From contig CAZMTL010000002.1 in assembly GCA_964569575.1 (NCBI GenBank), forward strand, positions 85,618-138,815: a stretch of DNA of 53,198 nt, read 5' to 3'. The DNA is from an uncultured Gammaproteobacteria bacterium. Lineage in GTDB: Bacteria; Patescibacteriota; Patescibacteriia; UBA9934. Of the stretch, positions 6,289 to 50,172 are shown piece after piece. Positions within the stretch are counted from its first letter, which is position 1. Every line of letters begins with the position of its first letter. Made by a program: the position numbers and the translations under genes. The notes under the pieces were generated by a model, which worked only from the letters and a program-made list of their open reading frames with translations, was not told where the DNA came from and did no database searches.

Positions 6289-8218
<1,930 letters not shown>

Positions 8219-11512: not shown

Positions 11513-11549
11513 ACAAAGACTATTATAGCAAAAAACACGCTTTCGCGTG

Positions 11550-12299
11550 CTATTGCGTTTGAGTTTGAGTTTTTTTGTTTGGAAGAAACACCGCGTACAG
11601 CAAGAATGTCAGCAACGTTGTTACAAGCCAGTACAACATCACACCTCCAGGCAGCGACACACATCCCAAAATCAAACTTAATCCTGGAATAAAGTACAAC
11701 ATCATCTTATTCATCGAAGCCATCATGTCTTCATCCGCCGCTCCCTTCTTCTCTCGAACAGCTGGGTCGGGTCGTCGCGAAACCGTTTGCTTCGCCTGGA
11801 AATACTGAGCAATGGCCGTTATTATCGCAAGCGGAATAGAAATTTTCGCCAAATCCATCCCTAGAAAAACTGTATCAATCACGCCAGGATTTGAAACAAA
11901 TGAATACAAATGATCAGGATTCACTTCTTTTAAACCATTTTCTAGTACACGAAATAATGAAAAAAAGATCGGCAACTGAATCAACAACGGCAAACAAGAA
12001 GCAAGTGGATTTACATTGTGGTCCTTGTACACCGCCATCAATTCCTTCGCCATGGTTTCGCGATCATCCTTATACTTCTCTCGAATTTCGGCAATTTTCG
12101 GCTGAATTTCCTGCATCTCCTTTTGCGCTTTCATCGACTTATACGTCAACGGAAATAACACTCCTTTGACAAGGACGGTGATCAAAATAATCGGAATCGC
12201 AATCGAAGCGTACGGAATCAAATCATACAAACCAACCAACAAGTTATACAAAGGCTGGTACAACACGACAAAGAAAATATTCATACTATTCCTGTACAC
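11550..12299 (-). CDS. yidC: membrane protein insertase YidC (short form)
   Basis: 249 aa. Shows LYQPLYNLLVGLY, SMKAQKEMQEIQPKIAEIREKYKDD and NPLASCLPLLIQLPIFFSLF. Confidence 0.9.
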   Translation of the reverse strand: MYRNSMNIFFVVLYQPLYNLLVGLYDLIPYASIAIPIILITVLVKGVLFPLTYKSMKAQKEMQEIQPKIAEIREKYKDDRETMAKELMAVYKDHNVNPLASCLPLLIQLPIFFSLFRVLENGLKEVNPDHLYSFVSNPGVIDTVFLGMDLAKISIPLAIITAIAQYFQAKQTVSRRPDPAVREKKGAADEDMMASMNKMMLYFIPGLSLILGCVSLPGGVMLYWLVTTLLTFLLYAVFLPNKKTQTQTQ

Positions 12300-13557
12300 T
12301 TACATCGGCCGCTTCAGCAGAACTTTCTGTAACCTCATCCGAAGCTTCTTCTTCAGTTGATTCTTCTGCTACTCCAGATTCATCTTCTTTAATAGAAAGC
12401 TTCCATCCAACCAACTTTGCTGCCAAACGAACATTCTGACCACCCTTTCCAATCGCAAGCGACAACTGATCATTCGCTACCAACAACGTCGCTTCTTTTG
12501 TTTCTTCATTCATCTCGACACGCTGAATTTTTGCAGGAGAAAGCGCCTGTTTAATAAACGTTTCCGCATCATCACTCCATTCAATTACATCAATTTTTTC
12601 TCCACCCAATTCCGAAATAATGGTCTGAATACGAGTTCCACGCTGACCAATACAAGAACCGATTGGATCAATATTTTCGTCCGCAGTAAACACAGCGATC
12701 TTCGTTCGAGAACCAGCTTCTCGTGCAATTCGCTTAATTTCTACCGCACCATCGGCAATTTCTGGAATTTCTACCTCAAACAACACGCGCACCAATTCTT
12801 CACTTGTACGCGAAAGCAAAATCTGCGGACCACGCGCGCTCAAACTCACTTCGCGCACATACACCTTAATTCGTGCTCCAGATTCGTATCGCTCTGTCTT
12901 CACCTGATCTTCTGGCAACATCACACCAACGGTTCGACCAATGTCGACCAATACAACACGCCCTTCACGTCGTTGAATTGTTCCAATCAATACTTCGCCT
13001 TCCTGTTCCTTATACTCATTAAACACAATTTCACGTTCCGCTTCGCGCAATTTCTGTGTAATCACCTGCTTGGCTGTCATTGCTGCCATTCGGCCGAATT
13101 CTCCGCTTAATGGCAATTCCGTTCGCATCACATCACCAACCTGTGCGCTCAACTTCAACACACGTGCATCCGAAATCATAATATCGGTCTTCGGATTAAA
13201 CTTCGGACCATCTTCCCCTTCTTCCACAGATTCATCCACAGGTCGCTGAAATTCTTCCACAGAGGCAAATTTAGACGCCGCTTCCGCCGCTTCTTTTCCG
13301 GCCAATTCTTCCGCCTGCATTTTTCGCATCGCTTCAATTTCTTCCTCTGGCAAATCCTCTACAACCGTTTTTACGTCATACAAACGCACGCCACCAGTTT
13401 CTGGAGCGAATTTTGCTTCGATATTTTGCATTTTGTTTCCAAAATCCTTTCGATACGCCGCCGAAAGCGCCGCTTCGATGGTTTCTACAACCGATTCGTA
13501 AGAAAGTCCTTTTTCTTCACAAATCTGCCGAATTGCTGACTCGATATCTGATGCCAT
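12286..13557 (-). CDS. nusA: transcription termination/antitermination factor NusA
   Basis: Starts MASDIESAIRQICEEKGLSYESVVETIEAALSAAYRKDFG, followed by S1 and KH regions (IGQRGTRIQ, AIGKGGQNVRLA). Start moved to ATG 13557. The track ORF extends to 13611. Confidence 0.9.
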   Translation of the reverse strand: MASDIESAIRQICEEKGLSYESVVETIEAALSAAYRKDFGNKMQNIEAKFAPETGGVRLYDVKTVVEDLPEEEIEAMRKMQAEELAGKEAAEAASKFASVEEFQRPVDESVEEGEDGPKFNPKTDIMISDARVLKLSAQVGDVMRTELPLSGEFGRMAAMTAKQVITQKLREAEREIVFNEYKEQEGEVLIGTIQRREGRVVLVDIGRTVGVMLPEDQVKTERYESGARIKVYVREVSLSARGPQILLSRTSEELVRVLFEVEIPEIADGAVEIKRIAREAGSRTKIAVFTADENIDPIGSCIGQRGTRIQTIISELGGEKIDVIEWSDDAETFIKQALSPAKIQRVEMNEETKEATLLVANDQLSLAIGKGGQNVRLAAKLVGWKLSIKEDESGVAEESTEEEASDEVTESSAEAADVSVQE

Positions 13558-13647
13558 AAAAGTAAAAAATAAATCTTTATTGAAGAAATGACCCGGCAAC
13601 AGCCGAGTCATTCAATAACCGAAGAATATCACACGAAAGAAAAAAGA

Positions 13648-13992
13648 TCAATTTGCCACCCCAATCAAATGCACCAGTTCGGTGCCACAAATCGCAATCA
13701 CATCAATACGGTATTCTTGCAATAATGTGTGTTTTTCTAAATATTGCATGGCCGTCCGATGCATCTTCTGCAATTTTGACGCAGTCACAGATTCTTCCGG
13801 GTACCCAAAATCCGCCGTCTTCCTATGCTTCACTTCAACAAAAACGATCTCGTCGCCGTCGCGGGCAACAAGATCGATTTCTCCATAACGCGTTCGAAAA
13901 TTACGATCCAAAATACGATACCCCTTTTTCTGTAAAAACACTTCCGCCTGCCGTTCGCCACTCGCACCAAACAACCTCCTCGCCAAACTCAT
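13648..13992 (-). CDS. yraN: YraN family (UPF0102) endonuclease-like protein
   Basis: 114 aa. Shows GERQAEVFLQKKGYRILDRNFRTRYGEIDLVARDGDEIVFVEVKHR. Confidence 0.85.
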   Translation of the reverse strand: MSLARRLFGASGERQAEVFLQKKGYRILDRNFRTRYGEIDLVARDGDEIVFVEVKHRKTADFGYPEESVTASKLQKMHRTAMQYLEKHTLLQEYRIDVIAICGTELVHLIGVAN

Positions 13993-13994
13993 AC

Positions 13995-14411
13995 TTATCG
14001 ACTTCGTCGCGGCAAGTACTTATTCGCCTCGGCCCGACTCTGCTGTCGCGCCTTAAGCGCAGGCACATCACGCACCACATATCGTCGAATAGAAACAATC
14101 CACGCAACAAACCCAACCACCCACACCAAAAACCAAAACCGCGCTCCCAAAAAATACACACCCTCTAGACTAAAGAAGAGCCACAAAAAACCTAGCGCAC
14201 CCATCGTTAACAACATCGTACCAACTTTCACAAACGTGTTACGCGTATACACATCATACTTCTTCTGCCGACTCACAATACGTAAAACAGCTCCAAAAAG
14301 AAGCAAGAGAGCAAATAGTAAAAAGAATGAAGTCTGAAAGAACGGACTCATGAAATCAGGCACCAACGCAAACCAGAAGTCTAAACGAAGCAACGGAAGG
14401 AAAAAATTCAT
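13995..14411 (-). CDS. hypothetical membrane protein
   Basis: 138 aa with about 4 predicted TM helices and a basic C-terminus. No recognisable family. Confidence 0.6.
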   Translation of the reverse strand: MNFFLPLLRLDFWFALVPDFMSPFFQTSFFLLFALLLLFGAVLRIVSRQKKYDVYTRNTFVKVGTMLLTMGALGFLWLFFSLEGVYFLGARFWFLVWVVGFVAWIVSIRRYVVRDVPALKARQQSRAEANKYLPRRSR

Positions 14412-14465
14412 AGAATTGAAAGGGGTAAAAATAACAATTGCCGAAGATGGTACTCAACAAAAAGC

Positions 14466-15017
14466 CTACCCGTCAAGGCGATGAAAAATAACACCCCAAT
14501 GCGAAGGTGAAACAGGAAGATCATCTTTCTTCACAAATCCATGCGGCAAAAACACCTGCTCAACATCGTACTGACTTTGCCGAAGATGCCGAGGAGGCGC
14601 CACAGGATGCGCCAAATCGTGCTTCCAATCCACCATCACAAACACCCCACCCGCCTTCAACAACCGCCGAGCTTCGCTTGCAACAATGTCTGGTGAAGTT
14701 AGCACCGACACCGCATTACTCAATAACACGACATCTAAAGAAGCGGGCGGAATACCAACACCATCTCGGCATTCAATGTCGCCCCAAATCGTCTCAACTG
14801 GTCGCGCACACATGCGAGACAAGTCATGCAAATAATCCAAATGCGGTCGATGAACATCCACGGCGTAGACGCGTCCATCTTCCCCAACCAATTGCGAAGC
14901 TGGGAATACAAAATGCCCCGTGCGTCCCGAAGCAAAATCCGCGACATGCATTCCAGCGCGAACCGGAATGCGTCGAAGTAGCGCCGTCGAATCGATAAGG
15001 ACATTTCCAAACCTCAT
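14466..15017 (-). CDS. class I SAM-dependent methyltransferase
   Basis: 183 aa. Has VADFASGRTGHF (motif I-like) and GRVYAVDV. Its start overlaps the upstream gene in an ATGA arrangement. Confidence 0.7.
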   Translation of the reverse strand: MRFGNVLIDSTALLRRIPVRAGMHVADFASGRTGHFVFPASQLVGEDGRVYAVDVHRPHLDYLHDLSRMCARPVETIWGDIECRDGVGIPPASLDVVLLSNAVSVLTSPDIVASEARRLLKAGGVFVMVDWKHDLAHPVAPPRHLRQSQYDVEQVFLPHGFVKKDDLPVSPSHWGVIFHRLDG

Positions 15018-15271
15018 ATTCCTCCGCTAAAAATATTCGTCAAAAATCCACCAATCACGCGATCGAACAAATTGGTAATAAACATAAATCCAACCAAAAT
15101 GATCGCCGTCCCCAGCAACTTATAAAACAACCGCGTCCCACCCGGACCAAATTTTCGTTCCGCAAATTCGATTCGTCCAATCATCTCCAAAATAAACGCC
15201 GTCTTATACACAAATAAAAATCCTATCGCCGCAACTCCCACCCCAATCAAAATACGTACAATAAATGACAT
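15014..15271 (-). CDS. small hypothetical membrane protein
   Basis: Two or three TM helices. Start set to ATG 15271 because TGtTATACT (15288-15280, minus strand) sits 8 nt upstream. The track ORF starts at a GTG at 15298. Confidence 0.55.
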   Translation of the reverse strand: MSFIVRILIGVGVAAIGFLFVYKTAFILEMIGRIEFAERKFGPGGTRLFYKLLGTAIILVGFMFITNLFDRVIGGFLTNIFSGGI

Positions 15272-15279
15272 ATACAAAA

Positions 15280-15288
15280 AGTATAACA
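15280..15288 (-). promoter_or_regulatory. extended -10 promoter, leaderless-type
   Basis: The minus strand reads TGtTATACT followed by 8 nt and then the ATG at 15271. Confidence 0.45.
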
Positions 15289-15317
15289 CACTTCGCACAC
15301 CGATTCGCGCAGCTTCC

Positions 15318-15650
15318 CTACTCTTTTTTCAAATCCAACTTATCCAACTTCAGCCCCTTAAAGACAAAGTAGACAACGGCCGCAATAATAAAGAAATCCA
15401 ACATTGTAGAAAGAAAATGCCCGTACCGAACTTCCGCTCCGCGCATCACAAATACGGCTGCCTCCAGTCCTTCCGTCGAACCAAACAACAACCCAATCAA
15501 AGGCTGAAAAATATCTTCCACCAACGCATTCACCAAATCCTTGGCAGCCGTCCCCAAAATAAACCCAATTGCTAATCCAACAACACCCTGCTCGCGCACA
15601 AATTGCACAAATCCTTGCGTTTGCTTCTTTAAAATAAATGACTTCAACAT
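15318..15650 (-). CDS. mscL: large-conductance mechanosensitive channel
   Basis: 110 aa. Shows FVQFVREQGVVGLAIGFILGTAAKDLVNALVEDIFQPLIG. Confidence 0.9.
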   Translation of the reverse strand: MLKSFILKKQTQGFVQFVREQGVVGLAIGFILGTAAKDLVNALVEDIFQPLIGLLFGSTEGLEAAVFVMRGAEVRYGHFLSTMLDFFIIAAVVYFVFKGLKLDKLDLKKE

Positions 15651-15659
15651 AGTAAAAAC

Positions 15660-15668
15660 AGTATACCA
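15660..15668 (-). promoter_or_regulatory. extended -10 promoter of mscL, leaderless-type
   Basis: The minus strand reads TGgTATACT followed by 9 nt and then the ATG at 15650. No SD is present. Confidence 0.45.
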
Positions 15669-15690
15669 AACATAAAACAGATAAACGAAC

Positions 15691-15718
15691 TTGACTTTTT
15701 CCCATTTTTTGATAGTCT
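15691..15718 (+). promoter_or_regulatory. sigma70-like promoter driving the G+C-rich ORF at 15764
   Basis: TTGACT (15691-15696), a 16-nt spacer ending TTTTTTGA, and TAGTCT (15713-15718). A+T-rich like the host. Followed by GGAGG (15754-15758) 5 nt before the ATG. Confidence 0.5.
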
Positions 15719-15763
15719 GCTAGGTGCAATATTGAGCATCCCGCTCAAGCACTGGAGGCGCAC

Positions 15764-16459
15764 ATGCGCAAGTGGTTGGCCGTCATCGGCCTCTCCCTGA
15801 CGTCCTCGGCGGCGATGGCCTACGGGCCGATCAACACGAACCCCGACGGGCTGTGTTTCGACTTCGAGTGGTTCGACGAGGAAGGTGAATTCTACGCCGG
15901 CGGCTCGACCAGCTTCGAGTTCGTCACGACCGCGGATACGGGGATCGACGCCCTCTGCACGCAGGGGTGGGCCGCGAACCTGTGTCGCGAGAACCTGAGC
16001 AACAGCGGGTTCACCACCGGAGACGGCGGGAACGGCAGCGTGACGTTCAGCGTCATCCAGCCGGGCAACGCTGGCAGTCGACGACAGACCCTGGACCTGG
16101 AGTACCAGGGCACCGGAGCGATCTACAACGGCACGGTTCCCACCGTGGGCAGCTTCCAGTACTTCGGTGAGATGGAGATCCCCTCCAATCCCGACTTCTA
16201 CGGATACTGGTACGAGTCGGACTGCCCCGAAGAGCTGACGAACACGCGTCGTGGTCCGATGTTGATGAACGCGGCCGGCGAGTTCTTCGGTGAGAACCCC
16301 GACTACGTGCCGCCCGTGGACGAGCCGCAGCTCGACCCGGACGGCCTGCCGAACGAAGCGCCCCGCGGGTGCTCGTCGATCGGCAACCTGCCCCTCGGCA
16401 GCGCCCTCCTGCTCCTGCCGCTCGCGCTGCTGCGCCGGCGCGAGACCTGCGCGATCTAG
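15764..16459 (+). CDS. G+C-rich secreted protein with a Gly-Cys / TM helix / RRR C-terminal sorting-type tail
   Basis: 231 aa. Signal peptide MRKWLAVIGLSLTSSAAMAYG. C-terminus GCSSIGNLPLGSALLLLPLALLRRRETCAI. All of the first 30 codons end in G or C. Has its own SD and terminator. Confidence 0.75.
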   Translation: MRKWLAVIGLSLTSSAAMAYGPINTNPDGLCFDFEWFDEEGEFYAGGSTSFEFVTTADTGIDALCTQGWAANLCRENLSNSGFTTGDGGNGSVTFSVIQPGNAGSRRQTLDLEYQGTGAIYNGTVPTVGSFQYFGEMEIPSNPDFYGYWYESDCPEELTNTRRGPMLMNAAGEFFGENPDYVPPVDEPQLDPDGLPNEAPRGCSSIGNLPLGSALLLLPLALLRRRETCAI

Positions 16460-16505
16460 AGCGCGCACAACCTGAACTCGCTCGTCCCTCGGGACGAGCA
16501 CCCTC

Positions 16506-16542
16506 GAACCGGAAGCCTCGCGCTCCGGTTCTTCCTTTTTTT
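16506..16542 (+). terminator. intrinsic terminator of the 15764 ORF
   Basis: Stem gaaccgga (16506-16513) / tccggttc (16524-16531), followed by TTCCTTTTTTT. Confidence 0.7.
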
Positions 16543-16585
16543 ACAAATAATAAAGAAGCCGGTGGCACCTTTGGGTACCACCGGC
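16543..16585 (-). terminator. intrinsic terminator of the RTX-repeat ORF
   Basis: Stem gccggtggcacc / ggtaccaccggc (16558-16585, one mismatch). On the minus strand it is followed by UUCUUUAUUAUUUGU. Confidence 0.65.
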
Positions 16586-16613
16586 CAGAAGTCACACGCA
16601 GAAGCCGTCTCGT

Positions 16614-17828
16614 CTAGCGACCGAACTCCGTGATCAAGCTCGAGCACTCAGCGTAGGCCGCCGAATTGCTCTGCTCGACGCCCGTCGGCGTCAACACGTC
16701 GGCCCAGTCCCAGACGGCATGCCGCGCTTCTTCGACGGTGTCGTTGCCGAAGAGATCGGTCTTGCACACCTGGTTCCCAGAGACGATGTACTGCTCCATC
16801 CAGGCCTTGTCGGTACCGACGGCACCGAAGAAGTAGGCCGTCTGGGGGCAGGTCGCGAGGTTGGACACGTCCGAAGGCCAGGACGTATCGCACAGAACGT
16901 CATCTCCCGGTCCGCCGTTGACCTCGTCGTTGCCAAGGCCGCCGTAGACGACGTCGATGCCAGCATGACCGTAGCTCTCGTCGTTGCCGCCACCACCGTG
17001 AATCCGATCTGCGTCGGGTCCACCGTAGATGAAGTCGTTGCCAGCGCCACCGTAGATGGTGTCGTCGTTGTACTCACCGTACAAGAAGTCGTCGCCGTCG
17101 CCACCGTCGATGTAGTCGTTGCCGTAGTCGCCCTTGATCAGATCCTTGCCGCCATGGCCGTACAACTCATCGGCGTAGTCCCAGCCGTAGATGGTGTCGT
17201 CCAGTTCTCCGCCATGAAGCTCGTCTACATCGTTGCCACCCTCGATGTGGTTGTACTGCGCGGGCGCTCCGTAGATGATGCTCGGCTGCGAACCGCCGTA
17301 CAGGAAGTGAGGGAGGTTGACCGTGCTCGCGTACAGCGAGCCATTGATCACGTCCCAGCCGGCATTGCCGTACACCGTGAAGCTGGTACCAGTCGAATCC
17401 CACGGCTCGAGGTCGTAGAAGACGCCGGGTACGGACAGCTCGCTACGAGTGTAGACGTAATCGTTCATCGTGCCGCCAGTGATCTCGACAGCGCTCACGC
17501 CCAGAGGCGCAACGTCATCGTCGATGTAGCAGCAGAAGAGCTCGATGTTCAGAGCAGGCGCGTAGCCACCCCACCCGAAGACCAACAGCTCCTGATCATC
17601 CATCGTGACGATCGACCAGTTGGCAGCAGAGGGGGGAACCGTCGCACCGGCCCAGTTCATCTCGCAGGTGAGCTCATCGCCCACCACCTCACACACAGGC
17701 GCGCCGCCGAACTCACAGGGATCGGTCCAGAGCTCGATCGGAGAACCCGAAGGGGCCTGATCACAGTCCTTCGCCACCCCACCGAACACGGTGAAGCAGA
17801 TCATGTAGAACATCATCAACAAGTGCAT
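16614..17828 (-). CDS. G+C-rich RTX (hemolysin-type Ca-binding nonapeptide) repeat protein
   Basis: 404 aa. Repeats include GGAGNDFIY, GGPDADRIH, GGGGNDESY, GGLGNDEVN, GGPGDDVLC and GGDGDDFLY. Hydrophobic N-terminus MHLLMMFYMICFTVFGGVA. Confidence 0.8.
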   Translation of the reverse strand: MHLLMMFYMICFTVFGGVAKDCDQAPSGSPIELWTDPCEFGGAPVCEVVGDELTCEMNWAGATVPPSAANWSIVTMDDQELLVFGWGGYAPALNIELFCCYIDDDVAPLGVSAVEITGGTMNDYVYTRSELSVPGVFYDLEPWDSTGTSFTVYGNAGWDVINGSLYASTVNLPHFLYGGSQPSIIYGAPAQYNHIEGGNDVDELHGGELDDTIYGWDYADELYGHGGKDLIKGDYGNDYIDGGDGDDFLYGEYNDDTIYGGAGNDFIYGGPDADRIHGGGGNDESYGHAGIDVVYGGLGNDEVNGGPGDDVLCDTSWPSDVSNLATCPQTAYFFGAVGTDKAWMEQYIVSGNQVCKTDLFGNDTVEEARHAVWDWADVLTPTGVEQSNSAAYAECSSLITEFGR

Positions 17829-17869
17829 CTCGAAGTCTCTCTGTCATCTGCGCATCATTACGCGGCGAG

Positions 17870-17898
17870 ATTATAAACTAATTCTAAACTTTAATCAA
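17870..17898 (-). promoter_or_regulatory. sigma70-like promoter of the RTX-repeat ORF
   Basis: On the minus strand: TTGATT (17898-17893), 17 nt spacer, perfect TATAAT (17875-17870). It lies in A+T-rich sequence just outside the G+C-rich block. Confidence 0.55.
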
Positions 17899-28998: not shown

Positions 28999-29007
28999 TG
29001 CTATAAT
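28999..29007 (+). promoter_or_regulatory. extended -10 promoter of cca, leaderless-type
   Basis: TGcTATAAT followed by exactly 6 nt and then the ATG at 29014. No SD is present. Confidence 0.55.
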
Positions 29008-29013
29008 ACAATC

Positions 29014-30486
29014 ATGTTCGGAGGACTCCTCACCCGCTACGCGCACAAATCAATGCCACCACAAAAACAAGTGGAGCATTTTTGTGATCAAGAAAAAAAA
29101 TTAACGTGGGTTCGCGCTTTCTTAAAAGCACACGGCACCGCTGATGTGCTTCTTGTCGGCGGAACCGTTCGAGACATCCTTCTCGGAAAACATCCGGCTG
29201 ATATCGATCTAGTAATTACGAACACAGAACTAGACGACGTTGTAAAATGGCTTAGAAAAAACGGAAAAGCTGAAGAAGTCGAAACACGTTTCGGTACAAT
29301 TAAGTTCACCCCAAAAAATCAAAAAGGCATTCAACCAATCGACATCGCGCTCCCAAGAGTCGAATCAATTGGCGAACATCACTACAGTGGAAAAAACGAT
29401 TTACATGTCCAATTCGACGCTTTTCTTCCAATCGACCAAGATCTTGCACGACGCGATTTCACCGTAAACGCCATCGCTTACAGCTACAAACACAACAACA
29501 TTATCGACCCATTCGACGGCATCGATGATTTACACGGCGGCATTATACGAACGGTCGGGCTCGCGAAAGAACGCTTTCACGAAGACGCAACACGCATTTT
29601 GCGCGGGCTTCGATTTGCAAGTCGATTACAATTCAGCATCGAAGAACACACCTGGAACGCCATGCAATCTCAAATCGAAACGCTCAACTCGACTCGCATG
29701 GAAGAAAACGGTACTCACAAATACGTCATTGCTCGCGAACTGATTGGACGCGAATTCCTTCTCGCATTCACAGCTCACCCCGTACACACACTCATGCTCT
29801 GGAACCACGTCGGCGCTCTAGAGCTATTCTTGCCCGAAGTCCACAAAACACAAAGCGTCATTGAACAAAACGGCAAAACCGCATTTGAAAAAACCATCAA
29901 TCTTCTCCACCTTCTTCAAAAAAAATCCTTCCTCCGAATCCACAAAACGCACACGACTTCGGCAACTACCCTTCTAGCCGCCCTGTTTTGCTTTACCGAA
30001 CAACCGCTCAAACACCGAGCGTTCGAAGTGTGTCAAAATCTCTTCCTCCACCAATTTTCAAAATCACATCCATCGCATGTAAACTGCAGTGACGTGCTGT
30101 GGCTAGTCGAAAAAATCCACCACTTCGAAGAACAAGACCCAAGCACCATGCGCCCAAGTGAATTCGAAAGTCTGTTCTGCAACGAACGCGGCCAGCAACT
30201 TCTCATTCTTATGAACGCCGTTTACGCTGCAAGCGAATCCCACAGCCCAGCCCGCGCACGCCTCCACACAGCTCGCCGCATTCACGAATCAATGATGAAA
30301 ACCATTTGCCCTCAAGGAGAAAATCTAAAACACCTTCTCTCCGGCGAAGACTTGAAAAAACTCAACATCCCCGAAGGCCCACAATACCGAGAAATCAAAT
30401 CTCTCACCCGCGACGCCCAACTAACCGGCCGAATAAAATCAAAAAAAGACGCCCTCACCTTCGTAAAAACACACTTTCTGAAATAA
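29014..30486 (+). CDS. cca: CCA-adding enzyme / poly(A) polymerase-family tRNA nucleotidyltransferase
   Basis: 490 aa. Shows LLVGGTVRDILLGKHPADIDLV, RRDFTVNA and EDATRILRGLRFASRL. Confidence 0.85.
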   Translation: MFGGLLTRYAHKSMPPQKQVEHFCDQEKKLTWVRAFLKAHGTADVLLVGGTVRDILLGKHPADIDLVITNTELDDVVKWLRKNGKAEEVETRFGTIKFTPKNQKGIQPIDIALPRVESIGEHHYSGKNDLHVQFDAFLPIDQDLARRDFTVNAIAYSYKHNNIIDPFDGIDDLHGGIIRTVGLAKERFHEDATRILRGLRFASRLQFSIEEHTWNAMQSQIETLNSTRMEENGTHKYVIARELIGREFLLAFTAHPVHTLMLWNHVGALELFLPEVHKTQSVIEQNGKTAFEKTINLLHLLQKKSFLRIHKTHTTSATTLLAALFCFTEQPLKHRAFEVCQNLFLHQFSKSHPSHVNCSDVLWLVEKIHHFEEQDPSTMRPSEFESLFCNERGQQLLILMNAVYAASESHSPARARLHTARRIHESMMKTICPQGENLKHLLSGEDLKKLNIPEGPQYREIKSLTRDAQLTGRIKSKKDALTFVKTHFLK

Positions 30487-31336: not shown

Positions 31337-31413
31337 TGGTGGGTCTGGATGGACTCGAACCATCGACCGCCGAGGTATAAGCTCGGTGCTCTAACCAGCT
31401 GAGCTACAGACCC
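31337..31413 (-). tRNA. tRNA-Ile, anticodon UAU, CCA encoded
   Basis: The reverse complement is gggtctgtagctcagctggttagagcaccgagcttatacctcggcggtcgatggttcgagtccatccagacccacca. The anticodon stem is ccgag/ctcgg and the loop is CTTATAC. Confidence 0.88.
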
Positions 31414-37778: not shown

Positions 37779-38756
37779 ATGAACATCTTGACCGGCATTC
37801 AACCAACGAACATTCTGCACATCGGGAACCTCTTCGGCGCTCTAAAGCCAGCCGTTGAACTGCAAAAACAACATCAACTCCACATGATGGTGGTTGATTA
37901 CCATGCAATCACGGTAAAATTCGATCCAAAAATCCTAAAAGAGAACATCCTCTTTGCCACAGCTACATACCTTGCGGCAGGCATCGATCCAAAAAAGACA
38001 CTCCTGTTCCAGCAATCTGACGTATCCGCTCACACCGAACTTGCGTGGATTCTGCAATGTGTCGCCCGCATTGGCGAAGTAGAACGCATGACGCAATTTA
38101 AAGACAAATCCCAAAAAGGAAACGCCCAAAATTCAAGCGTCGGGCTACTCACCTACCCGGTGCTTATGGCAGCCGACATTCTGCTCTACCAAACCGAAGG
38201 CGTACCTGTCGGCGAAGATCAAAAACAACACGTCGAACTTGCACGCGACCTAGCCGAACGCTTCAACCGCGACTACGGCCAAACATTCGTTGTACCAGAA
38301 CCCCTCATCGGCCAAAACGGGGCGCGCATCAAGGCACTCAACGAACCAGAAAAAAAGATGAGCAAAAGCGCAGCCAGCGCCAAAAACTTCATCTCCCTCA
38401 TGGACGACGAAGACATCATTCGCAAAAAAATCCGCAGCGCGGTAACAGATTCACTTCCAGGGATCACAAACGACCAAAGCCGAACAGGACTCAAAAACCT
38501 GCTCTCCATCTATCAGCTCCTTACAAAAGAGTCTGAAACAGAAATCGTAGCTAAGTATGAAAACCGTGGAATGAAGGACCTAAAGGACGATCTAGCCGAA
38601 CTACTCATCATCTACCTCACTCCTCTACAAGCCGAAATCCAAGGCTGGATGGATAACCGAACAGAACTAGAAAAACTACTCCAAATTGGAGCAGGAGGGG
38701 CGAGAGAAATCGCGGACAAAACACTAAAAACCGCCAAAAAAGCCATTGGTTTATAA
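37779..38756 (+). CDS. trpS: tryptophan--tRNA ligase
   Basis: 325 aa. Shows [17 protein letters not shown] (HIGH-type), KMSKS and [16 protein letters not shown]. Confidence 0.93.
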
Positions 38757-38794
38757 AAAAATGCTCAGACCAACAAATCTGAGCATTTTTATTT
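38757..38794 (+). terminator. intrinsic terminator after trpS
   Basis: 13-bp stem aaaaatgctcaga / tctgagcattttt with an 8-nt loop, followed by ATTT. Confidence 0.75.
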
Positions 38795-38840
38795 AGAAAA
38801 ATTTTTCCGCACAACCAAGCCACTTTTTATCCCCAGTTTA

Positions 38841-38869
38841 TTGACAAAACCCCATTTTTTTGAAAGTAT
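38841..38869 (+). promoter_or_regulatory. sigma70-like promoter driving the G+C-rich ORF at 38926
   Basis: TTGACA (38841-38846), a 17-nt spacer aaaccccatttttttga, and AAGTAT (38864-38869). From the TTGAC onward, 20 of the first 22 positions are identical to the rnpB promoter at 39549. Confidence 0.5.
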
Positions 38870-38925
38870 ACCCACGTCCCGGCACCCCGCCTGCGACACA
38901 ACATCATGACCACAGGAATTCCATC

Positions 38926-39405
38926 ATGGAATCCAACCTCGCACTGAACGAGACGCCCGTCTCGTTCAGCGACCTCGACCTCGACACCACCCCCGCTCCT
39001 ACCCGCTTCTCGATGCTCGTCGTGAAGAAGCCCTCCAAGAAGGCGGTACGGAAGGAGATCGAGCGCATCAAGGCGCTCAAGGTCCCTCCTGGCCTCATCG
39101 AAGAGGTGGCCAAGCGACGTCTGCTCTTCTGCAAGCGTCTCGAGCTCATCAAGCCCGAAGGTGGCCTCAACGACCACGCGCTCAAGATCCTGCGGGAGTT
39201 CTCGAAGGAATGGCTCGCTGCCACCATCGAGGACGTCACCGCGCTGGAAGAAGCCATCGACGAACTGATCGCACGACCGAAGAACCGGATCGCCGAGATC
39301 GTGCCCAGGTGGTGGTTGCAGCGCAACTACCCCAGCATGACCCTCGAGCGTCGACCCATCCAGGTCGGCATGATCAACGGCCGTCGGCTCGCCTCGGGCC
39401 GGTAG
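38926..39405 (+). CDS. G+C-rich orphan hypothetical protein (159 aa)
   Basis: Starts MESNLALNETPVSFSDLDLD. AGGA sits 8 nt upstream of the ATG. 26 of the first 30 codons end in G or C. Has its own terminator. I recognise no family. Confidence 0.65.
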   Translation: MESNLALNETPVSFSDLDLDTTPAPTRFSMLVVKKPSKKAVRKEIERIKALKVPPGLIEEVAKRRLLFCKRLELIKPEGGLNDHALKILREFSKEWLAATIEDVTALEEAIDELIARPKNRIAEIVPRWWLQRNYPSMTLERRPIQVGMINGRRLASGR

Positions 39406-39457
39406 CATGACAACCTAGAACTCGCTCGCCGCGGCGTCTGCCGCAGGCGAGCACCTC

Positions 39458-39491
39458 CCGACCACGTTTCACCGTGGTCGGCATTCGTTTT
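39458..39491 (+). terminator. intrinsic terminator of the 38926 ORF
   Basis: Stem ccgaccacg (39458-39466) / cgtggtcgg (39473-39481), followed by CATTCGTTTT. A second imperfect GC hairpin lies at 39424-39453. Confidence 0.65.
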
Positions 39492-39548
39492 AAGCCTCTT
39501 TTTCACAATATTTAAGACCCAACTCGTTCAAAATACCCTCCATTTCCT

Positions 39549-39577
39549 TTGACAAAACCCGCTTTTTTTGCTACACT
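39549..39577 (+). promoter_or_regulatory. sigma70-like extended -10 promoter of RNase P RNA
   Basis: TTGACA (39549-39554), a 17-nt spacer aaacccgctttttttgc, and TACACT (39572-39577). Confidence 0.65.
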
Positions 39578-39583
39578 TCGCGC

Positions 39584-40072
39584 GGGAAACAGAATGATCG
39601 CTGTTGATTTTCGACAGAGGAAAGTCCGAACACCTTTTGTGCGGCAACGTACAAAAACAAAAAACGTCGCTAACGGCGACCAGGAGAACTCGGGCAACTA
39701 AGAGTTGGATAACTGCTCTTGATTGCCTGATCGAATCCTAGGGAAAGTGCCACAGAGACTATACTAATTTTGCGAAGCAAAATTAACCTGAGCGAAGTCG
39801 AAGGGTCTTTCGTCGAAAGACAAAATGACCCCAAACAAAGCAAACGTGTAATTTCGTAAAATGAAACGTGAAAAGCAAGATGGTGTGCTCGAGCAAAAGC
39901 ATCGACCCGCTACATCTTTCGTCTTCCGGTGACGGAATGACGCGGTAAACCCGTTTTGGTGCAAGAGCAAATTTGGTAGCTCGCTTGAATTCTTTGGCAA
40001 CAAAGAAACTAGATAGATGATCATTGCCTAGATTTCGGTCTAGGAACAGAATTCGGCTTACATGTTCCCCAC
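39584..40072 (+). ncRNA. rnpB: RNase P RNA, bacterial type A, about 490 nt with an enlarged P12 region
   Basis: Conserved blocks GAGGAAAGTCCGAACAC (P4 5' side), AGGGAAAGTGCCACAGAGA and ACAGAATTCGGCTTAC (P4 3' side). P1 pairs gggaaaca with tgttcccc. The ends are approximate, within a few nt. Confidence 0.85.
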
Positions 40073-40106
40073 AAAACACTCCGGCTAGTCCGGAGTGTTT
40101 TGTTTG
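40073..40106 (+). terminator. intrinsic terminator after rnpB
   Basis: 12-bp stem aaaacactccgg / ccggagtgtttt with loop CTAGT, followed by GTTTG. Confidence 0.75.
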
Positions 40107-40158
40107 AACAAACGAAGCCTCCACCCCTACCCCCTTCCTCTGCTATACTACCTACACT

Positions 40159-41565
40159 ATGAAACGAATCGATCTCTATTTTGCCGTAGCGAAAATTCCT
40201 CTCGACTTCATCACCCTTCTAGCTGCTGCAACTGCTGCCTACTCGGTTCGATTTTCTCCCTTCTTCGCCTCCATCCGACCTATTACGTTCAACCTCACCT
40301 ACACCGAATACTTAAACGTTGTCTCACCAGCAATCGTATTAGCACTCGCCGTATTTACACTCGCGGGATTGTACCGAATCGAAACAACACGCATCGCCAC
40401 CGAAATCAGCCACGTGTTTCTTGCAACCGCCGCCGCGATGGCCGTCATTCTGGCATTCGCCTTTTTCCAACGCGAACTATTCGATTCGCGATTCATCGTG
40501 CTCGCCGCATGGATTTTTGCAACCATCTTCCTTGTCATTGAACGTACGCTTGTCAGACTTCTTCAACGCTCACTACGCACGCTAGGCATAGGCATGATGC
40601 ATGTAGTGATTATCGGAAAAACAAAATCAAGCTGGCAGATTGAACGATTCTTCACTCGATTTCCCCGTTTCGGATACCGAGTCGCCATGCACGTTCAATC
40701 GTTTAACGAACAGTCCGAAAAACACATTCGCTCACTAAAAAAGAAAGACCAAGTCGACGCAATCCTAGTTGCAAATCCAGACATTACCAACCACGAACTT
40801 CACAAAATAAAAGCCTTCACCGACCAAGAACACCTCCGTTTTATCTACTCATCCGAAATCGCCCCAAGTGGCACAACTCGGCCAATTTTACATACATTCG
40901 CCGGTCTTCCAGTGATCGAAGTACCAAAAACCCCTCTCGACGGCTGGGGCGCTATTTACAAACGTGTCTTCGATATCGTTGGCGCGAGCGCCCTCATCCT
41001 TGCAAGCCTTCCTCTGCAAATTTTGCTCGCATTACTGGTAAAACTTGATTCGTCAGGACCTATTTTCTTCCTACAAAAGCGCGTCGGCCAGGGAGGTAAA
41101 TCGTTCACCTATTTCAAATTTCGGTCGATGAAAAAAGATGCTCACAAGTTCCGATTCGATCCAAAGTTTATCGAAAAATACGGAAATATGCGTGAAGGTT
41201 CTCCCCTGTTCAAGCTCGAAAATGACCCACGCGTCACACGCATCGGAAAAATCATGCGAAAATTTAGCATGGACGAAATCCCAGAATTCTACAACGTTCT
41301 ACGCGGCAAAATGAGTTTAGTCGGACCCCGTCCACACATGCCCGAAGAAGTCGAAAAATACCAACCGCACCAACGCCAAGTTCTCACAATCAAGCCAGGT
41401 ATCACCGGCATGGCACAAATTAGTGGCCGAGCAAATTTGGAATTCGACGAAGAGGTGCGACTCGATCAGTACTACATCGAAAACTGGACTCCGTGGCTCG
41501 ACATTATTATTCTCGCCAAAACCCCCCTCGCTGTGTTCGAAAAGCTAGAAGAGAAAAAGAAATAA
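40159..41565 (+). CDS. undecaprenyl-phosphate sugar phosphotransferase (WbaP/bacterial sugar transferase family)
   Basis: 468 aa. Has N-terminal TM helices and a C-terminal domain with KRVFDIVGASALILASLPL, GPRPHMPEEV and PGITGMAQISGR. TGcTATACT lies 9 nt upstream of the ATG. Confidence 0.85.
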   Translation: MKRIDLYFAVAKIPLDFITLLAAATAAYSVRFSPFFASIRPITFNLTYTEYLNVVSPAIVLALAVFTLAGLYRIETTRIATEISHVFLATAAAMAVILAFAFFQRELFDSRFIVLAAWIFATIFLVIERTLVRLLQRSLRTLGIGMMHVVIIGKTKSSWQIERFFTRFPRFGYRVAMHVQSFNEQSEKHIRSLKKKDQVDAILVANPDITNHELHKIKAFTDQEHLRFIYSSEIAPSGTTRPILHTFAGLPVIEVPKTPLDGWGAIYKRVFDIVGASALILASLPLQILLALLVKLDSSGPIFFLQKRVGQGGKSFTYFKFRSMKKDAHKFRFDPKFIEKYGNMREGSPLFKLENDPRVTRIGKIMRKFSMDEIPEFYNVLRGKMSLVGPRPHMPEEVEKYQPHQRQVLTIKPGITGMAQISGRANLEFDEEVRLDQYYIENWTPWLDIIILAKTPLAVFEKLEEKKK

Positions 41566-41623
41566 ATCCAACCAAAGACCCACTATTTACAGACCCGCGC
41601 TGAAAAGGTAACCTCTCTACATT

Positions 41624-42739
41624 ATGCGGTTAGCCCTCATCCACGATCATCTTGTCCAAAGCGGCGGCGCAGAACGCGTGCTCGAAGCCATGCAAGCAAT
41701 TTGGCCCGAAGCACCTACGTACACGTTGCTCTACGACGAATCTACGATGAACGGCCAATTCAAAGGCAAAGAAATCCGCACCTCCTTCCTACAAAAACTT
41801 CCGTTTGCCCTCAAAAAATCCCGCTGGTACCTCCCCCTCATGCCAACCGCGACAGAACTCTACGATCTGTCTAAATTCGATGTCGTACTTTCGAATTCAA
41901 GCGCTTTTTCAAAAGGCATTATTCCAGGAACAAACACACTTCACATTACCTACTGCCACACACCTACGCGTTACCTCTGGAGCGACACACACAACTACCG
42001 CGAAGAAATAAACGCACCAGGAATCGCCAAAAAGCTCCTCCCATTACTACTCACCGGTCTACGCATGTGGGATCGCGCGGCAGCAGACCGTGTTGATCAC
42101 TTCATCGCCAATTCCGAAACCGTAAAACGCCGAATCGAACGCTACTACCGCCGCGACAGCGAAGTAATCTACCCGCCGGTAAACATCGACGAATTTTCGA
42201 TTTCACAAAAACCAAAAAAATACTTCCTCATCGGCGGACGACTTGTCGCCTACAAACGGTACGACCTAGTCGTTCAAGCGTTTACAAAGCTAGGACTCCC
42301 TCTCAAAATTTACGGCAGCGGACCAAACGAAAAGAAACTACGCGCCATGGCCGGACCAAACATCCAATTCCTCGGGCGAGTTTCGAACGAAGAACGCGCA
42401 ACCCTTTTCGCAAACGCGATCGCTTTCATGCACCCGCAAGAAGAAGATTTTGGCATCACCCCACTCGAAAGCATGGCAGCCGGCCGGCCGGTGATCGCCT
42501 ACGCTCGCGGCGGCGCACTCGAAACAGTAGTTGACGGTAAAACGGGTGTCTTTTTCCATTCACAAACCTGGGAAGAAATTGCAGACACCGTCCTTCAGTT
42601 TGATGAAAAAAAATTCGACCCAACCTACATCCAAAACCACGCAAAAAAATTCTCAACCGAACTATTTCACAAAAATATCTACAATTTTGTTCAAAAGAAA
42701 TGGGAAGAACACAAGCGAACACACCTAGGAAAGGCTTAA
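41624..42739 (+). CDS. glycosyltransferase family 4
   Basis: 371 aa. Shows GT-B group 1 features (EDFGITPLESMAAGRPVIA). Confidence 0.8.
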   Translation: MRLALIHDHLVQSGGAERVLEAMQAIWPEAPTYTLLYDESTMNGQFKGKEIRTSFLQKLPFALKKSRWYLPLMPTATELYDLSKFDVVLSNSSAFSKGIIPGTNTLHITYCHTPTRYLWSDTHNYREEINAPGIAKKLLPLLLTGLRMWDRAAADRVDHFIANSETVKRRIERYYRRDSEVIYPPVNIDEFSISQKPKKYFLIGGRLVAYKRYDLVVQAFTKLGLPLKIYGSGPNEKKLRAMAGPNIQFLGRVSNEERATLFANAIAFMHPQEEDFGITPLESMAAGRPVIAYARGGALETVVDGKTGVFFHSQTWEEIADTVLQFDEKKFDPTYIQNHAKKFSTELFHKNIYNFVQKKWEEHKRTHLGKA

Positions 42740-42743
42740 CGCT

Positions 42744-43850
42744 ATGAAGCTCGGCATCGATATTCGCCATCTCACACAAAAAAATCCTTCAGGCATTGGC
42801 CAATACACCATTGCGCTCATTCAGGCGCTTGCCGAAACAAAACCAGACGCAGAACTGCACTTATTCGCAAGCGGAACAAACAAGGCGCTTCAAAATCTCC
42901 CTCCCTTTCCACAAAAAAACATCACCGTTCACACAAAAACACTCCCAAACAAACTTCTCTCCGCAAAACTCTTCTTTCAAACAACCTCCGCACTAGAAGA
43001 TTTTTTGCCCGTCAAGATTGATCACTGGCTGTTCCCAAATCTCAACCACATCCGCACCCGACTTCCCTACACTATCACCGTTCACGATGTCAGCTTCGTG
43101 CTCTATCCAGAATTTTTCACCCAAAAAAGCCTTCTGTGGCACAAAACAACACGTCCATTTAAATTGCTATCAGAAGCCAAAGCCATTCTGGCCGTTTCGA
43201 ATACAACAAAACAAGACATCACTCATTTTTTCCAACAGCGGCCAGAAAAAATACACGTCACCCACCTAGGTGTGAGCAACAAATTCAATCCAAAACAAAC
43301 ACCAGCCGACCAAAACAACCTGCGCGATCTTGGAATCACTGGCCCTTACTTTCTTTGCCTTGCAACACAAGAACCCCGAAAAAACATCGATTCCGTTGTT
43401 ATTGCCTACCAAGAATGGCAAAAAAAACATCCAAACAATAAAACAACACTTGTAATCGCGGGAGGAAAAGGCTGGAAAACATCAACCAACCATCAAAACG
43501 ACAACATCATCCGCACGGGCTACGTCCCCGAATCAAGCAAACCAGCCCTTATTCGACACGCAAACGCCCTCTTCTTTCCCTCGTTCTACGAAGGGTTTGG
43601 TCTACCCGTGCTCGAAGCCCTCGCAAGCCAAACACCCGATGTAGCCTCGTTTACAGGCTCACTACACGAAATAGACGTTGACTCCACGCTCTACATCGAC
43701 CCATACAACCTCACCGACCTCATAAACGCATTCACGCTCATTCAAGACCAAAACATCATCAAATCACTCAAAGAAAAATCGACCGCACAAGCGCAAAAAT
43801 TCAGCTGGACAAAAACCGCGCAAAAAACCTGGGAAGCAATCGAAAGGTAA
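42744..43850 (+). CDS. glycosyltransferase family 4
   Basis: 368 aa. Shows FFPSFYEGFGLPVLEALAS, the E-x7-E region. Confidence 0.8.
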   Translation: MKLGIDIRHLTQKNPSGIGQYTIALIQALAETKPDAELHLFASGTNKALQNLPPFPQKNITVHTKTLPNKLLSAKLFFQTTSALEDFLPVKIDHWLFPNLNHIRTRLPYTITVHDVSFVLYPEFFTQKSLLWHKTTRPFKLLSEAKAILAVSNTTKQDITHFFQQRPEKIHVTHLGVSNKFNPKQTPADQNNLRDLGITGPYFLCLATQEPRKNIDSVVIAYQEWQKKHPNNKTTLVIAGGKGWKTSTNHQNDNIIRTGYVPESSKPALIRHANALFFPSFYEGFGLPVLEALASQTPDVASFTGSLHEIDVDSTLYIDPYNLTDLINAFTLIQDQNIIKSLKEKSTAQAQKFSWTKTAQKTWEAIER

Positions 43851-49462: not shown

Positions 49463-49491
49463 AAAACACCACTCGCTTAGAGTGGTGTTTT
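49463..49491. terminator. bidirectional intrinsic terminator shared by convergent genes
   Basis: 12-bp stem aaaacaccactc / gagtggtgtttt with loop GCTTA and U-rich flanks on both strands. The stop codon of the HNH ORF (49477-49479) lies in the loop. Confidence 0.75.
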
Positions 49492-50172
49492 TAAATAATT
49501 AAAATGAAATAAATGACCATCGTCTTTGTTAATCAAATAAATATAGACTGGAAATCGATCATAAAAACAAAACTCCCAAAAAAACGAATTAGAATCACGA
49601 CACTTCTGAAATCGAAATTTAAACACTACATTGCCAACAAAATTCACACCTCCTAATAAAGAACTCAATCTACTAGCATTTTCGAACTGAAAAGAATCGC
49701 GCTCAAGATTAATAGTTGACCAAATTATTTTTGCTTTATATTCAGAACTTAAATCTAGGTATCGAGAAAAATGCTTAAAATATAATCCTTTCAATATCTT
49801 AATAATACACTGTTCAAACGATTTTTTCTCTGAATCACCTAAAATAAAAGCAACTGAGTCTGTTCGGACAATAATTTTTCGAAACTGATTCAACAAGTAG
49901 TTAGGTCGATACTCCAAATTACGTATTTTTGATTGGGAATGTTTTTCTGCATTTACATCTCCAAAGGCAGAATGAAATAAAATCTGACAAAAATCATGCT
50001 CATATTTAGCGGCAATATCGTTATTGCACTTCTTATGAGAATTCTTTTTGGAAACTATAAAGTCAGAAAGATCAACAGATAACGCATCCTGCAACATCGC
50101 TTTCGGAACTAAATGCTCTCTACCCCCTAAACCAGGCAAAACTAATTCTCCGCACCAATAACAAACATTCAT
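49477..50172 (-). CDS. HNH (His-Me finger) endonuclease-domain protein with an unknown C-terminal domain
   Basis: 231 aa. Shows CYWCG...GGREHLVPKA...HKKCNND, an HNH-like CxxC / H / N pattern. The gene is markedly A+T-rich relative to both neighbours. Confidence 0.65.
   Translation of the reverse strand: MNVCYWCGELVLPGLGGREHLVPKAMLQDALSVDLSDFIVSKKNSHKKCNNDIAAKYEHDFCQILFHSAFGDVNAEKHSQSKIRNLEYRPNYLLNQFRKIIVRTDSVAFILGDSEKKSFEQCIIKILKGLYFKHFSRYLDLSSEYKAKIIWSTINLERDSFQFENASRLSSLLGGVNFVGNVVFKFRFQKCRDSNSFFWEFCFYDRFPVYIYLINKDDGHLFHFNYLKTPL

Follow-up and report, generated by a model that had tools for sequence, protein, structure and literature searches.

How did a short GC-rich gene come to lie between trpS and rnpB, two core genes of an uncultured bacterium, in DNA with a G+C content of about 46%? 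The question is raised by a 53,198-nt stretch of contig CAZMTL010000002.1 (the whole of which is referred to as the window), in which a 159-codon open reading frame (ORF), ORF159, separates the gene for tryptophanyl-tRNA synthetase (trpS) from that for RNase P RNA (rnpB). On its sequence the host is assigned as a relative of Candidatus Uhrbacteria, in the candidate phyla radiation (CPR). The window trpS is 56-63% identical to that of Candidatus Uhrbacteria genomes and 70-75% identical to that of the closest relatives in metagenome assemblies. On balance, and with modest confidence, we believe that the slot taken by ORF159 is a recurrent hotspot of gene turnover, immediately behind the trpS-proximal rnpB promoter that is ancestral in Uhrbacteria.

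The composition of ORF159 sets it apart from its host. G+C content at the first, second and third codon positions (GC1, GC2 and GC3) is 0.613, 0.406 and 0.856, and the gap between GC3 and GC2 lies 8.3 standard deviations (SD) over nucleotide shuffles. The whole ORF has a G+C content of 0.625, with 136 of its 159 codons ending in G or C. Compared with 40 host ORFs, whose GC3 is 0.446 +/- 0.062, its GC3 stands at z=6.6, and in codon usage it departs from the host mean by 6.5 SD. The GC-rich block (38871-39484, G+C 0.629) is flanked by DNA of 0.316 (38757-38870) and 0.381 (39485-39581), and it is one of two blocks that stand out in the window, the other being an island at 15.6-18.0 kb (0.54-0.64 compared with 0.63 at 38.87-39.48 kb), called island 1 below. 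Translational selection in the host was ruled out as the source of the high GC3, since highly expressed host genes are GC3-poor (GroES, 0.34; L19, 0.33; the adjacent presumed GroEL, 0.40). With both GC3 and codon usage beyond the host range and expression level no explanation, ORF159 has the composition expected of a horizontally acquired gene. A first-pass annotation, made from the sequence by a model, had described a single-gene transcription unit of foreign composition encoding a 159-aa protein of no recognised family, and this description was borne out (38926-39405, plus strand). Its count of G/C third positions in the first 30 codons (26) was exact, as was that of G+C at 39061-39120 (38 of 60), and the last 60 nt of trpS contain 26 G+C where about 27 had been estimated. 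The promoter (38841-38869), AGGA site and GC-rich terminator (39458-39491) that it had proposed were all located.

The public record probably has the wrong strand at this locus. The protein collection holds an antisense 193-aa product, together with the neighbouring RNase J, sugar transferase and RTX-repeat protein, all from one NCBI contig. The sense products (159 or 181 aa) are not in that collection, and consequently the deposited annotation appears to have been called on the wrong strand. The antisense ORF (38827-39408), to which the first-pass annotation had drawn attention, does exist; it is longer than ORF159, and gene callers have chosen the antisense ORF both here and in the related locus L138. 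Its G+C content by codon position, 0.784/0.412/0.598, is the mirror image of that of the sense frame, from which we conclude that coding lies in the sense frame. The pattern GC3 > GC1 > GC2 of GC-rich coding DNA occurs in the sense frame only, and the promoter, Shine-Dalgarno-like site and terminators all point along the sense strand. Coding periodicity belongs to the sense-strand ORF in all relatives, and no family match was found for the antisense product. That the antisense ORF is the real gene, or that the region is non-coding, is thus hardly credible. By these features of its sequence we regard ORF159 as a genuine, independently transcribed protein-coding gene with a foreign-type composition. 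Further wrong-strand records were found in an antisense 285-aa ORF over gene A of island 1 (p231) and likewise at the corresponding gene of L138. Gene callers tuned to a low-GC host evidently mis-call GC-rich islets, as seen in the cassette, in island 1 and in L138, and the record of a public Uhrbacteria genome, in which this gene was probably annotated on the wrong strand, is hereby put right.

Alignment of the sequence that follows the trpS terminator across ten loci revealed one conserved promoter, aTTGACAAAAcgnc..TTTTTTGCTAYAcT. Where trpS adjoins rnpB, as in L007 and L012, the promoter (TTGACAAAAC…TTTTTTGCTAYACT) precedes rnpB, the trpS-rnpB spacer being 44 nt in L007 and ~95 nt in L012. 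The same promoter precedes the adjacent rnpB in L012 and L005; L005 looks like L007 and L012 from its conserved rnpB motifs, with no rnpB reported there by Rfam at the gathering threshold. In L001, L002, L003, L006, L135, L138 and the window it precedes the first GC-rich gene instead. Because trpS is followed directly by promoter and rnpB in L007 and L012, where ORF159 is absent from the orthologous site, the ancestral order is trpS - promoter - rnpB. In the window, 0.7 kb of GC-rich DNA lies between the TG/extended -10 position of the promoter and rnpB.

Two copies of the promoter element bracket this DNA. The 12-mer TTGACAAAACCC occurs exactly twice in the 53 kb, at 38841 and 39549, and is part of a 22-nt direct repeat (38841-38862 and 39549-39570) whose copies are identical at 20 of 22 positions and lie 708 nt apart, start to start. 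An identity of 20/22 was reached in none of 300 shuffles, and a metagenome scan with the repeat gave 29 matches, none related to the window. The right copy retains the ancestral extended -10 (TGCTACACT) ahead of rnpB. The left copy retains the -35 and spacer only, up to ...TTTTTTTG, and is followed by GC-rich DNA with a different -10, which gives ORF159 a sigma-70-type promoter composed of TTGACA (38841-46), 17 nt and AAGTAT (38864-69), with TG at the extended -10. Since the ancestral -10 (GCTAYACT) is missing at the left copy, the left junction is placed at ~38862/38863. The promoter of ORF159 had been called private to it; its -35 and spacer are in fact a copy of the clade-wide trpS-proximal rnpB promoter.

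The same site is occupied by other genes in the relatives. The closest of these (L134, L135, L136, L137, L138 and a 186-kb JGI contig) keep the synteny SecG - SBP - RNase J - trpS, and right after trpS comes an ORF of 220-290 aa without a Pfam match, designated X. In L134, L135, L137 and L138 rnpB was found after X, and genes for a sugar transferase and a glycosyltransferase follow X in L137, L138 and the JGI contig, the contigs that reach that far. The GC3 of X is 0.64 in L134 (host 0.27-0.29), 0.86 in L135 (host 0.52-0.54), 0.60 in L136 (57 codons only; host 0.35), 0.85 in L137 (host 0.68) and 0.94 in L138 (host 0.58). GC3-rich genes also lie directly after trpS in L002, L003, L006 and L011, and mildly so in L001. 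Altogether GC-elevated cargo was found at the trpS-proximal slot in about 10 of 17 Uhrbacteria-like loci, and elsewhere in these loci only two further high-GC windows were flagged, in L009 and L010. The two ORFs behind trpS in L002 have a GC3 of 0.79 and 0.87 (host 0.51). In L003 and L006 the 1.5-2.5 kb after trpS are GC-rich and encode small membrane proteins and proteins without an assigned function. In L011 a GC-rich island of >4.5 kb (11083-15768; GC3 0.80-0.87, host 0.57-0.63) starts directly after trpS; with translations read by eye and no family scan, its ORFs look like deoxyribose-phosphate aldolase, a 791-aa aldehyde dehydrogenase and phosphopentomutase, which would be metabolic cargo in the same hotspot. 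The short trpS-rnpB spacer that had been proposed for the locus without the cassette is thus seen in some Uhrbacteria, L007 and L012. The insertion is not a one-off event: the slot has other GC3-rich orphans in all five closest relatives and GC-rich islands in more distant ones. The ORF at this position in relatives is a different one, itself compositionally anomalous, and the same ORF with host-like composition was not encountered.

Is ORF159 then an X gene? Its position directly behind the trpS-proximal promoter and a GC3 well over that of the host are those of the X family. Like X of L134, L135, L137 and L138, it has the same promoter type (TTGACAAAA-type), no known domains and a long leader in which a Shine-Dalgarno-like site occurs, and its helical body is preceded by an N-terminus of low complexity. 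It also has a 5'-proximal hairpin, which is strong in the relatives and weak in ORF159 (leader fold -9.5 kcal/mol, z=-1.1; the leaders of X genes fold more strongly at the same place). The X proteins are interrelated weakly but significantly, with global-alignment z values of 3.6-7 at ~74% trpS identity (3.6-72 within the family as a whole). Where trpS is 92% identical X is 42% identical, and X thus evolves several-fold faster than trpS. No match to the X family was found in Pfam, PHROG, PADLOC or PDB. Homology of the leader sequences across relatives has no statistical support except between L135 and L137.

From these likenesses ORF159 could be a vertically inherited X orthologue, shortened and diverged past recognition, with its GC3 kept high by a locus-specific force, for which the candidates are GC-biased gene conversion, in a hypervariable locus that recombines often, and selection on the mRNA. 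X evolves so fast that loss of detectable similarity at the distance of the window is plausible, and ORF159 aligns with X of L135 and L137 at a marginal z of 2.5-3.2. The GC3 of X loosely follows that of its host (0.64 with a host of 0.28; 0.85-0.94 with hosts of 0.52-0.68), and a link between recombination and GC3 is proposed for bacteria (PMC4450053). Against this, the X profile matched ORF159 with a probability of 0.1% in hhalign, global alignments to X proteins gave z values of 0.1-3.2, and an all-against-all blastp left ORF159 unlinked to the 17 other proteins (16 slot proteins of relatives and p231 of island 1). ORF159 is also 60-130 residues shorter than the X proteins. Its codon usage ties it to island 1, 21 kb away, as does its 3' untranslated region (UTR), which is related to that island and not to the X genes. 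Finally, the two promoter copies are nearly identical in the window, and the corresponding ones in L135 and L137 look much more diverged (read by eye, with no formal count), which fits a greater age of the event in those two loci and a younger age, or homogenisation, in the window. Between replacement of X by an unrelated gene and orthology eroded past detection, we consider the latter unlikely, though the most probable of the alternatives.

The tie to island 1 is close. The island contains two convergent GC3-rich genes, p231 (gene A) and p404 (gene B, with RTX calcium-binding repeats). The mutual codon-usage distances of ORF159, p231 and p404 are 0.11-0.15, compared with 0.22 among host genes and 0.35 between host and island, and each of the three lies 6.0-6.5 SD from host codon usage; the kinship that the first-pass annotation had suspected between the cassette and the DNA at 15735-17870 was thereby supported. 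ORF159 and p231 also have a 3'-UTR module in common, ACAACCT(n)GAACTCGCTCG-loop-CGAGCACC, after which come another hairpin and a run of T. The module starts 6-10 nt past the stop codon, with one compensatory stem change between the two genes, and neither the rest of the window nor 1.68 Mb of related loci gave a further copy; it is absent from the relatives' slot genes and from p404. Because codon usage and the 3'-UTR module are shared, the evidence points to a common GC-rich source for the two islands. The N-terminus of p231 reads like a signal peptide (by eye, no predictor being applied), and its C-terminal Cys...RRR tail gave sub-threshold matches to sorting domains, Synerg-CTERM (17.1 bits, cut-off 22.5) and MYXO-CTERM. 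No homologue of p231 was found in 5.8 billion protein clusters.

We propose that DNA was installed between the promoter spacer and rnpB with duplication of the promoter element. The left copy would now drive ORF159 and the right copy rnpB, and the double-hairpin terminator (3'-UTR fold -43.7 kcal/mol, z=-5.7) would shield rnpB from read-through. The DNA may have arrived by horizontal transfer or by an allele swap between Uhrbacteria through the conserved trpS and rnpB flanks, and its donor pool may be the GC-rich pool that supplied island 1. Because the two promoter copies are still identical at 20 of 22 positions, the arrival would be recent relative to that of the X genes in related lineages.

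Several observations weigh against this proposal. No donor or homologue of ORF159 was found in ~15 billion proteins, so that transfer is inferred from composition and context only. The scans of window ORFs gave neither an integrase nor a transposase, and around the cassette no attC site and no terminal inverted repeats were detected. The likeness of the promoter copies could stem from gene conversion or from shared promoter constraints rather than recency, and no independent assembly or reads were found for the junctions of the cassette. Moreover, the X genes are weakly homologous across lineages with 70-76% trpS identity, yet all have a GC3 excess, of +0.17 to +0.36. Such persistence is unlike one-time acquisition followed by amelioration and leaves room for a locus-specific bias. 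Candidate causes of the persistent excess are repeated import from a GC-rich pool and a locus-specific GC drive such as biased gene conversion (PMC4450053).

The 22-nt repeat could also be the mark of a mobile single-gene element, integron-cassette-like or like an integrative mobile element exploiting Xer (IMEX), that integrated as a 708-bp circle by site-specific recombination of a 22-nt att core with the rnpB promoter, the recombinase being encoded elsewhere. The direct repeat brackets exactly one gene and its terminator, the structured 3' element is common to a second GC-rich gene of the same genome, and relatives carry different cargo at the same chromosomal site. A regular-expression search of both strands for attC R''/R' pairs (RYYYAAC/GTTRRRY) 40-160 nt apart gave none in 38800-39600 or 16440-16620. 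The cassette contains ORF159 only, with no recombinase gene inside, and Pfam gave no recombinase domain or intI among the non-overlapping window ORFs of 90 aa or more, a set from which the presumed GroEL gene, rnj and trpS were left out; eight of the scanned ORFs were without any match. The repeat is neither palindromic nor dif-like, the 3' module is missing from the relatives' slot genes and from p404, and the 22 matches to the 3' motif in viral contigs were all chance matches inside coding sequence. A mobile element of this kind is consequently quite improbable. In its strict form, an integron cassette was ruled out by the lack of an attC core pair and of an integrase domain in the scanned ORFs. 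An insertion sequence (IS) or miniature inverted-repeat transposable element (MITE) was likewise ruled out, as the cassette ends carry no terminal inverted repeats (the best local end match being 4-8 nt) and the duplication is 22 nt, not 2-14 bp.

The soundness of the assembly was considered as well, since the source is a metagenome-assembled genome, composition changes abruptly at the block edges and no independent contig was found over the cassette junctions, whether through exact look-ups of ORF159, the antisense ORF and trpS or through guessed partial and alternative-start products. In the Logan assemblies of SRR15237806 two contigs are 100% identical to the window, at 12273-17817 and 40581-43484, and the first of these (L132) reaches across the left junction of island 1. 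The promoter and rnpB flanks, which are of host type, line up exactly with the arrangement of the locus in relatives from at least 5 other samples, and the assemblies of L137 and L138 include both host flanks. The cassette region is present in a public NCBI contig, which we counted against an artefact, and it is implausible that a chimeric insert of 0.6 kb should end exactly at a promoter on one side and a terminator on the other. A chimeric assembly or a contaminating fragment of a GC-rich organism is accordingly very improbable. Contig L132 ends at 17817; the p404 start codon lies 11 nt further on, and the right edge of island 1 ~50-80 nt beyond the contig end. A branch in the de Bruijn graph or a drop in coverage at this point might be due to strain heterogeneity at the border of the island.

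The ORF159 product is predicted to be small, soluble, basic and helical, its acidic N-terminus being disordered. It has a mass of 18.2 kDa, an isoelectric point (pI) of 9.75 and no hydrophobic segment; residues 1-30 are acidic and the C-terminal tail is basic. A single-sequence AlphaFold2 model has a four-helix core (residues 38-116, predicted local distance difference test (pLDDT) score 75-84) and disordered ends, with a mean pLDDT of 66. No match was found in Pfam, PHROGs, NCBIfam or PADLOC (the best Pfam hit had E=0.13 and 12.4 bits, with a cut-off of 27), and a word-indexed search of 5.8 billion protein clusters gave no homologue. Full HMMER comparison with 1.84 billion representatives gave a single match (P0001), spurious and due to a repeated REFSEEW. 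By sequence, nothing in PDB had E below 0.1, and Foldseek searches of PDB and BFVD with the model gave nothing with E below 0.5. There was no match in viral contigs or, by tblastn and blastn, in plasmids and phages, and hence no homologue in a plausible donor lineage among the protein, plasmid, phage and viral-contig collections searched. A nucleic-acid-binding or regulatory role had been suggested; the searches gave no helix-turn-helix, Pfam, PDB or Foldseek match in its favour, and its support consists of the basic pI and the helices. Because the occupants of the slot evolve extremely fast, an accessory, conflict- or interaction-type role rather than a housekeeping one is suggested for them.

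A bolder extension of the hotspot is that the trpS-proximal rnpB promoter is a dedicated capture platform, at which GC3-rich genes are repeatedly installed immediately downstream of a strong promoter of a stable RNA, with duplication of the promoter so that rnpB stays expressed, and/or that a process at the locus keeps its residents GC3-rich. We think this rather improbable. As a platform, it may receive genes that are foreign or hyper-evolving, by a mechanism that may be integrase-independent or trans-acting; as a locus process, it may involve GC-biased gene conversion or a transcription-linked bias. If either were true, the locus would be a natural system for gene turnover and composition drive in CPR bacteria. 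For the hotspot itself, the analysis identifies in an uncultured CPR lineage a recurrent site behind the rnpB promoter whose occupants are orphan, fast-evolving and GC3-rich. Should the GC3 excess reflect a donor pool, for example the hosts of these likely symbionts, it could show with whom Uhrbacteria live; should it reflect a local bias, the locus would be a clean case for the study of composition drive.

The coordinates of the features are collected in Table 1. The trpS product at the left border is 56-75% identical to Uhrbacteria trpS carrying PF00579; it is not in the protein collection (exact look-up was negative, the best match being 75% identical), and neighbours of trpS from the same NCBI contig do occur there. 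The AGGA site lies 8 nt upstream of the ORF159 ATG. At a permissive threshold no Rfam family was found within the cassette.

Table 1. Features of the trpS-rnpB cassette and of island 1 in the window
Feature	Coordinates	Strand	Details
trpS, tryptophanyl-tRNA synthetase, left border	37779..38756	+	325-aa ORF; GC3 0.518
trpS intrinsic terminator, GCTCAGA...TCTGAGC then T-run	38763..38795	+	inverted repeat I1, sequence reading
Left 22-nt direct-repeat copy TTGACAAAACCCCATTTTTTTG, -35 and spacer of ORF159 promoter	38841..38862	+	repeat search, alignment with promoters of relatives
-10 hexamer AAGTAT after TG at extended -10	38864..38869	+	promoter scan, alignment with relatives
GC-rich 5' leader, ~50-56 nt	38870..38925	+	weak hairpin 38876-38897; AGGA at 38914-38917
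ORF159, orphan protein gene	38926..39405	+	159 aa; GC3 0.856, coding periodicity z=8.3
Antisense ORF, 193 aa	38827..39408	-	annotated in public record
3'-UTR module ACAACCTAGAACTCGCTCG...CGAGCACC, including hairpin 1 (39424-39452)	39410..39455	+	common with 3' UTR of island-1 gene A (16467-16503)
Intrinsic terminator, hairpin 2 (9 bp, 7 G-C; 39458-39481) then CATTCGTTTT	39458..39491	+	
AT-rich spacer between terminator and right repeat copy	39492..39548	+	G+C ~0.37
rnpB promoter, right repeat copy (39549-39570) then ancestral-type extended -10 TGCTACACT	39549..39577	+	
rnpB, bacterial RNase P RNA class A, right border	39582..40076	+	Rfam RF00010, 154.9 bits, E=4.7e-48
Island 1, two convergent GC3-rich genes	15691..17898		each gene with host-type promoter and own terminator
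p231 (island-1 gene A)	15764-16459	+	GC3 0.905
p404, RTX-repeat protein (island-1 gene B)	16614-17828	-	GC3 0.807

The remainder of the window is core housekeeping in content (aminoacyl-tRNA synthetases, NusA, YidC, a release factor, GroES, L19, RuvA and glycosyltransferases), with a strongly negative GC skew. By a loose criterion only 7 of 40 host genes have a Shine-Dalgarno site, and most are also without a leader; many have a TATAAT-like -10 box 7-12 nt before the ATG (for example 40135-40161, 29000-29016 and 15651-15680). Host mRNAs are thus suggested to be mostly leaderless or to have very short leaders, unlike the genes of the GC-rich islands, whose leaders of 45-56 nt contain GGAGG or AGGA. 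A 231-aa ORF at 49477-50172 (minus strand) has a G+C content of 0.315 and a GC3 of 0.254, far under the host, and no Pfam match; it is a possible AT-rich islet, the compositional opposite of the two GC-rich islands. A tRNA-Ile gene at 31337-31413 (minus strand) has the anticodon TAT (UAU), which is uncommon in bacteria.

Some further features concern rnpB and the slot. The rnpB of the window is 495 nt long, compared with a 367-position Rfam model, and must contain sizeable helix insertions; those of relatives are 373-506 nt. In L134 (6018-6337, minus strand) and L138 (7068-7481, minus strand) rnpB is inverted relative to trpS and X, indicating local inversion at the locus. An 85-aa GIY-YIG endonuclease ORF in L137 (7056-7313) overlaps the Rfam-defined rnpB body (rnpB at 7258-7763) and sits between that body and sequence resembling the rnpB promoter and 5' start (~7025-7046); this ORF possibly represents an insertion, intron-like or of the homing-endonuclease kind, within rnpB or beside it. 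Three more distant Uhrbacteria, L001 (1036-1584), L003 (11453-11944) and L006 (11286-12086), encode homologous small membrane proteins that end in a poly-Gly stretch followed by His (for example ...GGGGGGRHH); their genes come first or second after the trpS-proximal promoter.

Literature searches on horizontal transfer in Uhrbacteria, on integration at rnpB and on GC-rich islands of CPR bacteria found nothing relevant. The closest known systems are the hotspots and genomic islets of horizontal gene transfer between conserved core genes, among them islands that adjoin stable-RNA genes (tRNA or tmRNA) and have flanking direct repeats. As in these, compositionally deviant cargo lies between core genes, the cargo differs among relatives at one site that is empty in some, and the cassette is bracketed by a direct repeat that derives from a portion of the target locus. 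Unlike them, the repeat lies in the rnpB promoter and not at the RNA 3' end, there is no integrase, and the cargo is one gene only. In bacteria, genes of recent acquisition tend to be AT-richer than the host; the cargo here is GC-richer, and unlike in typical hotspot islands its GC3 excess persists across homologous slot occupants of diverged lineages. With integron gene cassettes the ORF159 unit has in common a single short ORF of ~0.7 kb in all, a resident upstream promoter element and a structured element after the gene that recurs with another cassette-like gene of the genome. It differs from them in having no attC core sites, intI or cassette array and in possessing its own -10, leader and terminator. 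Recombination-associated GC3 enrichment, or GC-biased gene conversion, is hypothesised for bacteria (PMC4450053), and the locus resembles it in that the GC gain sits at third codon positions and the locus appears to turn over or recombine often. It is unlike that enrichment in having a GC3 excess sharply bounded at the transcript ends. An excess of +0.34 to +0.41 with such boundaries is far above the genome-wide recombination effects in the literature. In kind, then, the cassette is nothing out of the ordinary, a horizontally acquired orphan islet in a hotspot and not a new type of system. What is unusual, compared with the known cases, is the capture of a promoter at rnpB and the succession of persistently GC-rich, hyper-divergent occupants behind it.

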